From a plasmid, in assembly GCF_057098645.1 (NCBI RefSeq), contig NZ_JBXSPU010000007.1: 3,133 nucleotides of DNA. One strand, written 5' to 3'. Shown piece after piece: positions 1 through 3,133 of the stretch. The notes under the pieces were generated by a model, which did no database searches, was not told the origin of the DNA, and saw only the letters and a program-made list of their open reading frames with translations. The translations under genes and the position numbers were made by a program. Each line of letters opens with the position of its first letter. Within the stretch, counting starts at the first letter, position 1.

Positions 1-300
1 GATTGTATTGTTTATCGCATTACGCAGAGCAACCTCAATCATCTGGACAAGACAAAAAAAATCGCCAGACAGATCTTGGTAGGCAACGTATGCCCCAACC
101 TTTTCTTGATCAGTAGCGCACCCAAGAAATGTTTCATAGAAAGATAATCTTGGTACAGAAATTGAGCTAATTAAACTTGTTGTATCCATGAAAACTCACT
201 TATCTCTTTACTATGAATATTTTTCAGACTACCATTACAACATTCGAGGAGCAGGCGAACTACCGTTTTTCTGTGTACCTCTAGAGCGTAAAATATAACA

Positions 301-647: not shown

Positions 648-971
648 CTAATCTGCCATAAGCCTGGATAACAGGGCCCGGTGATACTCCGTAATAGCGA
701 TCAGCACCTCCGCATACTCTCTGTCCCCGACACGCTTGCCGTCGATAAAGAGTTTTTTCTGTAACGCCCCCAGTCTCATAACTTCTTTCAGTACCCGATC
801 ATCAGTCAGTGAGTTAACTTTCTTACCGAGAGCTGCCGCCCGTAAAAAACCGGAAACGGTCTTGCCGCATTCAGCAGCCCTTTTTCTGATTTCCTGGTCT
901 TCTTCTGCCGTCAGACGAACAGGGCGACTGATAGCCCGCCTGCGCGTATTACTTCCACTTCGTTTTGTCAT
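648..971 (-). CDS. mobC: MobC-family relaxosome accessory protein (ribbon-helix-helix N-terminus), 107 aa
   Basis: From track ORF 648..1061 (-). Preferred start is the internal ATG at 969..971 (MTKRSGSNTRRR...), preceded by GGAG 9 nt upstream on the minus strand. The stretch RPVRLTAEEDQEIRKRAAECGKTVSGFLRAAALGKK, followed by DDRVLKEVMRLGALQKKL, fits the MobC pattern (RHH beta-strand plus two helices, then the conserved leucine-rich helix) as I recall it. The track start at 1061 would lie inside the oriT inverted repeat. Confidence 0.7.
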   Translation of the reverse strand: MTKRSGSNTRRRAISRPVRLTAEEDQEIRKRAAECGKTVSGFLRAAALGKKVNSLTDDRVLKEVMRLGALQKKLFIDGKRVGDREYAEVLIAITEYHRALLSRLMAD

Positions 972-990
972 AAAACATGGCTCCGTATCT

Positions 991-1075
991 GACATGGGGT
1001 GTCGGGGCGAAGCCCTGACCAGGGTAATTGTAATAGCGCGCATGTATGCGCGGTATAACAATTACACATCCTGTC
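991..1075 (+). other. Candidate origin of transfer (oriT/bom-like)
   Basis: Directly upstream of mobC and divergent from rom. 996..1023 (GGGTGTCGGGGCGAAGCCCTGACCAG) closely resembles the pBR322 bom-region string GGGTGTCGGGGCGCAGCCATGACCCAG as I recall it. It is followed by a 20-bp imperfect inverted repeat (1024..1065) and then ATCCTG (1068..1073), which resembles MOB_P-type nick cores. Confidence 0.55.
1024..1065. repeat. Imperfect inverted repeat in candidate oriT (arms 1024..1043 and 1046..1065, 17 of 20 positions complementary)
   Basis: Left arm gtaattgtaatagcgcgcat; reverse complement of right arm gtaattgttataccgcgcat; centre at 1044/1045. Seen directly in sequence. Confidence 0.85.
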
Positions 1076-1185
1076 CTGTCAGCAAGTTCGAATTACCGAC
1101 AAAGGCACGGCAGTTTTTTGGCAGTGACAGTATTGTCAGGCAGAAATGCCCGTCAAAGAGTCAGACGACAGAATACCGGCGGCAA

Positions 1186-1450: not shown

Positions 1451-1684
1451 CAGTGTTCCTACACCAGACAGGATGCAGAACGATATACCGGTGCGTAAGG
1501 AGAAAATACCACATAAGGCGCTCTTCCGCTTCCTCGCTCACTAACTCGCTACGCTCGGTCGTTCGGCTGCGGCGAGCGGTATCAGCTCACTCAAAGACGG
1601 TAATGAGGTTATCCACAGAATCAGGGGATAACGCCAAAAGAAACATGTGAGCAAAAAACAAGAACCCGAAAAAGGCCGCGCCGG

Positions 1685-2569: not shown

Positions 2570-3133
2570 TCAACCGGCTACCTTAAGCTCCCTGCACTTA
2601 ATCCTCCCTATAATCCCCATAACATACTCTATCGTGCAGCGTTCATAAAAGCGCCTATCGTGCCCAATAAACTCAATAAGTTCCTTTTTCTCGTTAGAGA
2701 CGATACTCAAGGCATTCATTAAAAAATTGAACTCTTTCAACATATTATTTATGGCTTGACTATGCGACTTGCAGTGGTGTTTTTTCCAAATAGGCTCATG
2801 GTGAAAAAGTCGATTCCTAAACAAAAGAACTTTATGAAACTCGTCAAACAACGCTTTAACCTTCATATCCCCCCCACCCAAAGGATTCTTCGCATGAGGA
2901 AATGTTTTTGCCTTGTTCTCTGGAGTCCAGATGTAGCACGGCCTTTGCGTATCCCTATATGGGGCATCTAACATATAAACCCAAAAGCCAAAGGTTAGAC
3001 GGCAAATAACATCATCATCCGTATACCTTACGCCACACTCATCTAGCGCTTTTTGTTTCGCATTTAAAACAAGATCCTGAGATTTCTTTGTTTGAGGTAT
3101 AGAGTCGTACCAAGCAGGCCCATGATTAGCTTT
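2570..3133 (-). CDS. Abi_2 (AbiD/AbiF-like) abortive-infection family protein with HEPN-type Rx4H motif; C-terminal 187 aa, N-terminus beyond the window
   Basis: Minus-strand frame is open from the window edge (3133) to TGA at 2570..2572; the track ORF 2570..2974 is its internally initiated part. Motifs: LTFGFWVYML, and FRNRLFHHEPIW matching the Abi_2 hallmark R-N-x-x-x-H-H-x-x-(L/I)-W, which contains the HEPN Rx4-6H signature. AT-rich codon usage differs from the backbone. Family call is from motif memory. Confidence 0.65.
   Translation of the reverse strand, partial: KANHGPAWYDSIPQTKKSQDLVLNAKQKALDECGVRYTDDDVICRLTFGFWVYMLDAPYRDTQRPCYIWTPENKAKTFPHAKNPLGGGDMKVKALFDEFHKVLLFRNRLFHHEPIWKKHHCKSHSQAINNMLKEFNFLMNALSIVSNEKKELIEFIGHDRRFYERCTIEYVMGIIGRIKCRELKVAG

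Follow-up and report, generated by a model that had tools for sequence, protein, structure and literature searches.

The plasmids closest to the one described here belong to the NTP16/pCERC7 group, which was defined by Moran and Hall (2017, as cited elsewhere) and which includes NTP16, pU302S, pCERC7, carriers of the pEC34A-type oriT and pMUT1 of Escherichia coli Nissle. A 20-bp inverted repeat has been described for pU302S (PMC9282650). This plasmid carries only an oriT and nikA; IncI1 plasmids mobilise it, and IncX plasmids do not (PMC8623487). With F it is mobilised at just ~1e-6, with the IncP tra genes of S17-1 lambda-pir it is not mobilised (<1e-7), and R64 mobilises NTP16; the same work suggests that a helper group yet to be recognised might be more effective (PMC9282650).

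For R64, PMC5863519 states, citing Furuya and Komano (2000), that the inner arm of the repeat suffices for initiation and that the whole repeat is needed for termination. The R64 NikA-binding site is the 'repeat A' marked in Fig. 1C of PMC4743918. The nick consensus of the MOB_P relaxases, (C/T)ATCCTG(C/T), is shared widely among MOB_P systems and is not peculiar to IncP (PMC3772185).

We analysed a stretch of DNA of 3133 bp (the window), which is a complete circular plasmid with 100% full-length identity to more than ten deposited 3133-bp plasmids of E. coli and Salmonella. It is a ColE1-type plasmid that lacks a relaxase, and its oriT-nikA module is that of the NTP16/pCERC7 group, already described, genuine but ordinary. 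We are confident in reading positions 996-1080 as the R64 (IncI-complex)-type oriT of an NTP16/pCERC7-group ColE1-type plasmid, with the relaxase NikB supplied by an I-complex helper.

Architecture of the plasmid

The features used below are, with their strand where one applies:

996..1080, + (predicted to be the nicked and transferred strand): oriT of the R64/IncI-complex type, by homology to the oriT upstream of nikAB
1001..1019, +: small hairpin, the 8-bp inverted repeat GTCGGGGC-GAA-GCCCTGAC, a predicted fold with a near-invariant stem in 12 homologues
1024..1043, +: distal (outer) arm of the large repeat, GTAATTGTAATAGCGCGCAT, from 18/20 complementarity and compensatory changes across homologues
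1046..1065, +: proximal (inner) arm of the large repeat, ATGCGCGGTATAACAATTAC, the predicted NikA-binding site by homology with R64 'repeat A'
1065..1076, +: nick region, CACATCCTGTCC, invariant in 12/12 aligned homologues
1129..1156, -: weak promoter-like sequence TTGACG-16-AATACT, from a consensus scan only
648..971, -: nikA, encoding a ribbon-helix-helix relaxosome accessory protein of 107 aa and transcribed away from the oriT
1256-1450: Rop (Pfam PF01815)
2095-2195: RNAI of a ColE1-type replicon (Rfam RF00106, 95.9 bits)
431-502, core ~431-460, -: cer-like site for multimer resolution by XerCD, which aligns with ColE1 cer (ATTTACCATAA...CGCACCGCTAAAACGCG)
189..1 joined to 3133..2570, -: cargo ORF of 250 aa, spanning the window ends

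Neither a relaxase gene nor mbe genes are found among the ORFs or annotations of the 3133-bp plasmid. The first-pass annotation of the site had noticed neither this absence of a relaxase nor the adjacent nikA (648-971, -). The coordinates it gave were all correct.

The window has the characters of the NTP16/pCERC7 group, namely the NikA of the group without a relaxase, the conserved oriT with its 20-bp repeat, and the replicon with a resolution site. It shares with the group members the ColE1-type replicon, rop, and a cer-like site placed beside variable cargo; the position of the site at 431-502 fits the architecture of the pCERC7 group. Compared with pU302S (RefSeq NC_006815) and pMUT1, the oriT is 96% identical and has the same nick region: there are ~5 differences in 129 positions, which leave the nick region untouched and include one at the base of the repeat that is compensatory (series T-A / C-G / T-G). 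The repeat is most complete in the window copy, with 18/20 complementary positions against 16/20 in pU302S by our own count.

Records at least 95% identical number 375 for the oriT and 381 for NikA, and these near-equal counts suggest that oriT and nikA travel as one module. Of 5,426 complete E. coli genomes, 263 carry the full nikA-oriT module, which among the matches listed is located on plasmids of 2.7-5.9 kb.

The group members differ in their cargo. In place of aph(3')-Ia, the variable cargo of the window is the 250-aa ORF, possibly an abortive-infection-like gene. Its match to Pfam Abi_2 is weak and sub-threshold (E ~1e-3; 19.9 bits, cut-off 25.6), and it matches no NCBIfam model. Directly 3' of its stop, within an ORF of 49 aa (2396-2545), lies a perfect 26-bp inverted repeat (2464-2489 / 2514-2539, arms 24 nt apart); it has no Rfam family and could be a terminator, a small RNA or a toxin-antitoxin-like element. 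Between the cargo gene and the cer-like site there is also a perfect 22-bp inverted repeat at 291-338 (AAATATAACAAAAAAGCCCACT / AGTGGGCTTTTTTGTTATATTT), which looks like a bidirectional intrinsic terminator.

An oriT of the R64 type beside a diverged NikA

The 84 bases at 996-1079 match, with 82-87% identity (blastn), sequence in ~1,600 conjugative plasmids, the matches including plasmids of the IncI1, I-gamma/K1 and K2/Z groups. We inspected seven large plasmids, covering IncI1/B/O, IncI-gamma/K1, IncK2/Z, a hybrid FIB + I-gamma/K1 and a Lelliottia plasmid. The oriT match lies directly upstream of nikA-nikB in 7/7 of them, with trbC adjoining in the IncI1-type ones, and those that are typed as conjugative have MOB_P / MPF_I systems. 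The IncI1 oriT reads GGGGTGTCGGGGCGAAGCCCTGACCAGATGGCAATTGTAATAGCGTCGCGTGTGACGGTATTACAATTGCACATCCTGTCCCG; the 8-bp hairpin that resembles bom and the nick region CATCCTGT are both native to it. Since all the sequence parts are found in the IncI oriT upstream of nikAB, the window site is not a hybrid. The earlier proposal of a ColE1 arm combined with an IncP motif thus has to be given up, both elements being native to the IncI (R64)-type oriT.

The window and the R64/IncI oriT share order and spacing, from the nikA start through the 8-bp hairpin and the large imperfect repeat to a nick in CATCCTG/T (slash, nick) 8 nt further on, with 82-91% identity over ~84 bp and an invariant nick region. Homology, a nick region that follows the repeat on its 3' side after ~8 nt, and a large repeat together with an upstream 8-bp repeat were the R64/IncI-type features that we looked for, and all were found. 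The general layout of an oriT proposed at first pass, an inverted repeat followed by a nick region, is upheld as the functional arrangement. The two differ in the length of the repeat, which is 20 bp in the window and 17 bp in R64/IncI, since the apex GCGCAT/ATGCGC pairs in the window. They also differ in nikB, which R64/IncI plasmids have in cis and the window does not have, and in NikA, the protein of the window being strongly diverged (53% identity).

In an alignment of 12 oriTs (the window, five conjugative plasmids and six small plasmids), three blocks are invariant: GGGTGTCGGGG, CCCTGA and CACATCCTGTCC. Among 14 loci compared, 13 have a single CACATCCTGTCC where the oriT lies, and ColE1 alone lacks it. 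The hexamer ATCCTG, whose conservation in homologous oriTs the first-pass annotation had made decisive, is likewise unchanged in 12/12.

The large inverted repeat is real, with 2 nt between its arms, and only its count needs revision: the arms within 1024..1065 are complementary at 18/20 positions and not at 17/20. The inner arm (1046-1065) is better conserved than the outer arm (1024-1043) in the homologue alignment. Compensatory changes are seen in 6/12 pairs of the repeat across the 12 homologues, and the covariation score is 0.191 compared to 0.090 in shuffles (0/500 as high). In addition, 93% of cells are paired, a proportion that falls to 36-44% once the partner columns are slid. By this pattern of substitution, the large imperfect repeat appears to be maintained by selection on pairing. 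The small hairpin never varies, so covariation is uninformative for or against it. RNAalifold also proposed long-range pairs (columns 13-15/95-97 and 37-39/91-93) by which the nick region would be sequestered; these were not adopted because the columns never vary and so carry no evidence.

As single-stranded DNA, 991-1080 is predicted to fold at -25.9 kcal/mol (z = -6.3), a value equalled by 0/200 shuffles. The fold consists of two hairpins, the 8-bp one at 1001-1019, which is what had been called the ColE1 bom-like arm, and the large repeat.

ATCCTG lies at 1068-1073, 2 nt past the large repeat, exactly where it had been placed, and the 8-mer CATCCTGT (1067-1074) matches the MOB_P nick consensus. 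The hexamer alone is at chance level, occurring three times in the plasmid. The 8-mer consensus occurs twice against 0.27 expected, and the same consensus is frequent in unrelated loci. The significance of the oriT site is due to its position and conservation and not to the hexamer itself. We predict the nick at G1073/T1074, with 8 nt separating it from the repeat; this exact phosphodiester is presumed from what is known of RP4 and R64. The other copy of the 8-mer, CATCCTGT(C) at 1475..1468 (-), lies just past rop in the opposite orientation and was considered as a second, inverted oriT (cf. pBuzz). We rejected it: its similarity to the oriT extends over at most 9 nt, no repeat adjoins it, and the 8-mer recurs by chance elsewhere.

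NikA of the window matches the Pfam NikA-like family PF21983 (E = 2.8e-18), the NCBIfam model NF041264 'MobA' (113 bits, cut-off 80) and the solved N-terminal ribbon-helix-helix domain of R64 NikA (2BA3), and it is 53% identical to IncI1 NikA over 102 residues. The same RefSeq protein, WP_000166966.1, is common to the window, pU302S and pMUT1 of E. coli Nissle 1917. It is also 99% identical to UniRef Q03449, listed as a '12 kDa protein' from Salmonella typhimurium, which we take to be the NTP16 protein.

Public annotation of this locus type is inconsistent. PGAP calls the NikA accessory protein 'plasmid mobilization protein MobA', a label (mobA) that arises because the NF041264 model carries the name 'MobA'. 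MOB-suite types sibling records variously as 'mobilizable' or 'non-mobilizable', and it gives pU302S a 'MOBF' relaxase despite the absence of a relaxase gene. For pSe-Kan, which has the same locus type, the oriT is 'ColE-type' in one paper and 'R64-type' in another (PMC9282650, PMC4743918).

The divergence of NikA bears on the identity of the helper. A conjugative family yet to be recognised, with a closer NikA and NikB, could be the natural helper and mobilisation by IncI1 plasmids mere cross-reactivity, a possibility raised in PMC9282650. The identity spectrum lends this idea some weight. In a tblastn search of 72,556 plasmids, the closest NikA on conjugative plasmids, those of the I-complex, are just ~55% identical (53-55%), and no records fall at 80-95% and seven at 60-80%. 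Nevertheless, among the matches listed from the same search no large conjugative plasmid carries a close NikA. In a search of 5.8 billion proteins, the NikA clusters above 60% identity are all on contigs of at most 6.6 kb, which suggests that NikA of this lineage is restricted to small plasmids; a closer 'cognate' helper was found in neither search. Moreover, IncI1 helpers mobilise sibling plasmids (PMC8623487), and IncI1 oriT variants up to 91.5% identical to that of the window occur. We consider such a helper improbable. The 91.5% oriT belongs to the IncI1 plasmid pZJ3920-2, which was checked as a possible carrier of a close NikA and rejected, being an ordinary large IncI1 plasmid with standard NikA and NikB.

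By proxy of its siblings pU302S and NTP16, the most likely relaxase for the window plasmid is IncI NikB. The first-pass reading of the nick core as RP4/MOB_P-like therefore stands for the MOB_P-like specificity and not for the helper, which would be IncI NikB and not IncP TraI, the IncP tra genes failing with pU302S.

Comparison with ColE1 and RP4

The resemblance to ColE1 is confined to one arm. ColE1, whose relaxase MbeA belongs to MOB_P5/HEN, has the arm GGGTGTCGGGGCG(A/C)AGCCCTGACC, and GGGTGTCGGGGCGAAGCCCTGACC of the window (997-1020) matches it at 23 of 24 positions. The conserved ColE1 arm GGGTGTCGGGGCGCAGCCNTGACC is thus present, as the first-pass annotation had noted in calling this string bom-like. 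Together with the ColE1-type replicon of the plasmid, this arm could mean that the site is a ColE1-type bom, nicked by an MbeA-family (MOB_P5/HEN) relaxase of a co-resident ColE1-like plasmid. However, the similarity to ColE1 stops at the arm, and there is no further alignment of the ColE1 oriT with the window site beyond it. Because all the IncI-type oriTs examined also contain the arm, it is not diagnostic for a ColE1 bom.

The ColE1 nick region, TATACTGG/CTTAA, has no match with up to two mismatches in the plasmid, and its two matches with three mismatches are located elsewhere, at chance level. The part downstream of the arm is thus indeed unlike the ColE1 nick region, and no mbe genes are on the plasmid. 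The ColE1 oriT, for its part, has no large repeat and a different nick region, its arm is ~29 nt from the nick compared to ~51 nt in the window, and it sits between rop and ori whereas the window site is on the other side of rop. Nicking by an MbeA-family relaxase is accordingly very improbable. The suggestion that the site is served by a relaxase with a specificity other than that of MbeA is upheld by the missing ColE1 nick sequence and by the IncI-type homology.

RP4 (IncP) offers an analogous arrangement, in which an accessory protein of the RHH type occupies the inner arm of a repeat and ATCCTG is nicked a few nt downstream. An IncP-type oriT recognised by TraJ and TraI would account for the ATCCTG core, which is common to RP4 (PMC3772185), and for a weak, sub-threshold match of NikA to the model for TraJ of RP4 (34 bits, cut-off 134). 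Sequence homology between RP4 and the window is nevertheless limited to the 8-mer, with no similarity to the RP4 nick-region oligonucleotide beyond it (PMC3772185). The sequence homologues of the window site all adjoin nikAB of MPF_I plasmids, and the IncP tra genes fail to mobilise pU302S (<1e-7; PMC9282650), whose NikA is that of the window and whose oriT is nearly identical. Recognition by TraJ and TraI is hardly credible on these grounds, and the window oriT belongs to the R64-type family and is neither an IncP oriT nor a ColE1 bom.

The repeat as nothing more than an operator or terminator for nikA expression is equally hard to credit, for although ribbon-helix-helix proteins often autoregulate and the repeat lies between the promoter-like site (1156..1129, -) and nikA, this would leave unexplained why a nick region 8 nt away is invariant, why the site is homologous to functional oriTs and why siblings are mobilised in published work. 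Autoregulation of nikA may well exist alongside the oriT function, and the promoter-like site at 1129..1156 could drive nikA transcription through the oriT.

Proposed transfer mechanism and its meaning

For the R64-type oriT with a helper of the I-complex, transfer of the window plasmid would proceed as follows. Its own NikA would bind the nick-proximal arm (1046-1065) of the 20-bp repeat and would recruit the MOB_P relaxase NikB, provided in trans from a co-resident IncI1, I-gamma, K, B/O or Z plasmid, through a presumed NikA-NikB contact. NikB would cut the + strand in CATCCTG/TCC, at the predicted position 1073/1074, and would remain bound to the 5' end. The coupling protein and the type IV secretion system of the helper would then export the + strand 5'->3', which means that rop and the replication origin would enter first and nikA last. 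Once again single-stranded, the full repeat and the 8-bp hairpin (1001-1019) would signal termination and recircularisation. For the hairpin, we infer this role from the R64 work of Furuya and Komano (2000), the title of which is cited in PMC5863519.

The inner arm also allows NikA and its predicted site to be compared across plasmids. That of the window differs from IncI1 at 1-2 positions, with the core TATAACA in place of TATTACA. Five small plasmids that have an R64-type oriT and no nikA all retain the IncI1 core TATTACA. The core is changed where nikA is in cis, to TATAACA in the window and to TATGACA in pF404-6, and IncK2/Z plasmids with their own NikA variant are also changed. pF404-6 (2182 bp) has a different, nikA-like gene of 141 aa and its own repeat variant. 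In this small sample, the pattern hints at co-evolution of NikA and its site. The existence of small plasmids with the same oriT type and no nikA suggests that NikA in cis may not be strictly required. More speculatively, the diverged NikA and the TATAACA arm could form a private, co-evolved adaptor pair that recruits NikB from several I-complex helpers or from an unrecognised helper, an idea that we regard as possible but doubtful.

For annotation, these results mean that R64-type sites can be called ColE1-type on account of the shared 'bom-like' arm, and that the 'MobA' of PGAP is here the NikA accessory protein and no relaxase. The window site leaves the current understanding unchanged, its type being already in the literature. 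The oriT-nikA module explains the spread of very common small ColE1-like plasmids that have no relaxase, and it is also carried by the kanamycin-resistance plasmids pU302S and NTP16 and by pMUT1 of the probiotic strain Nissle 1917.
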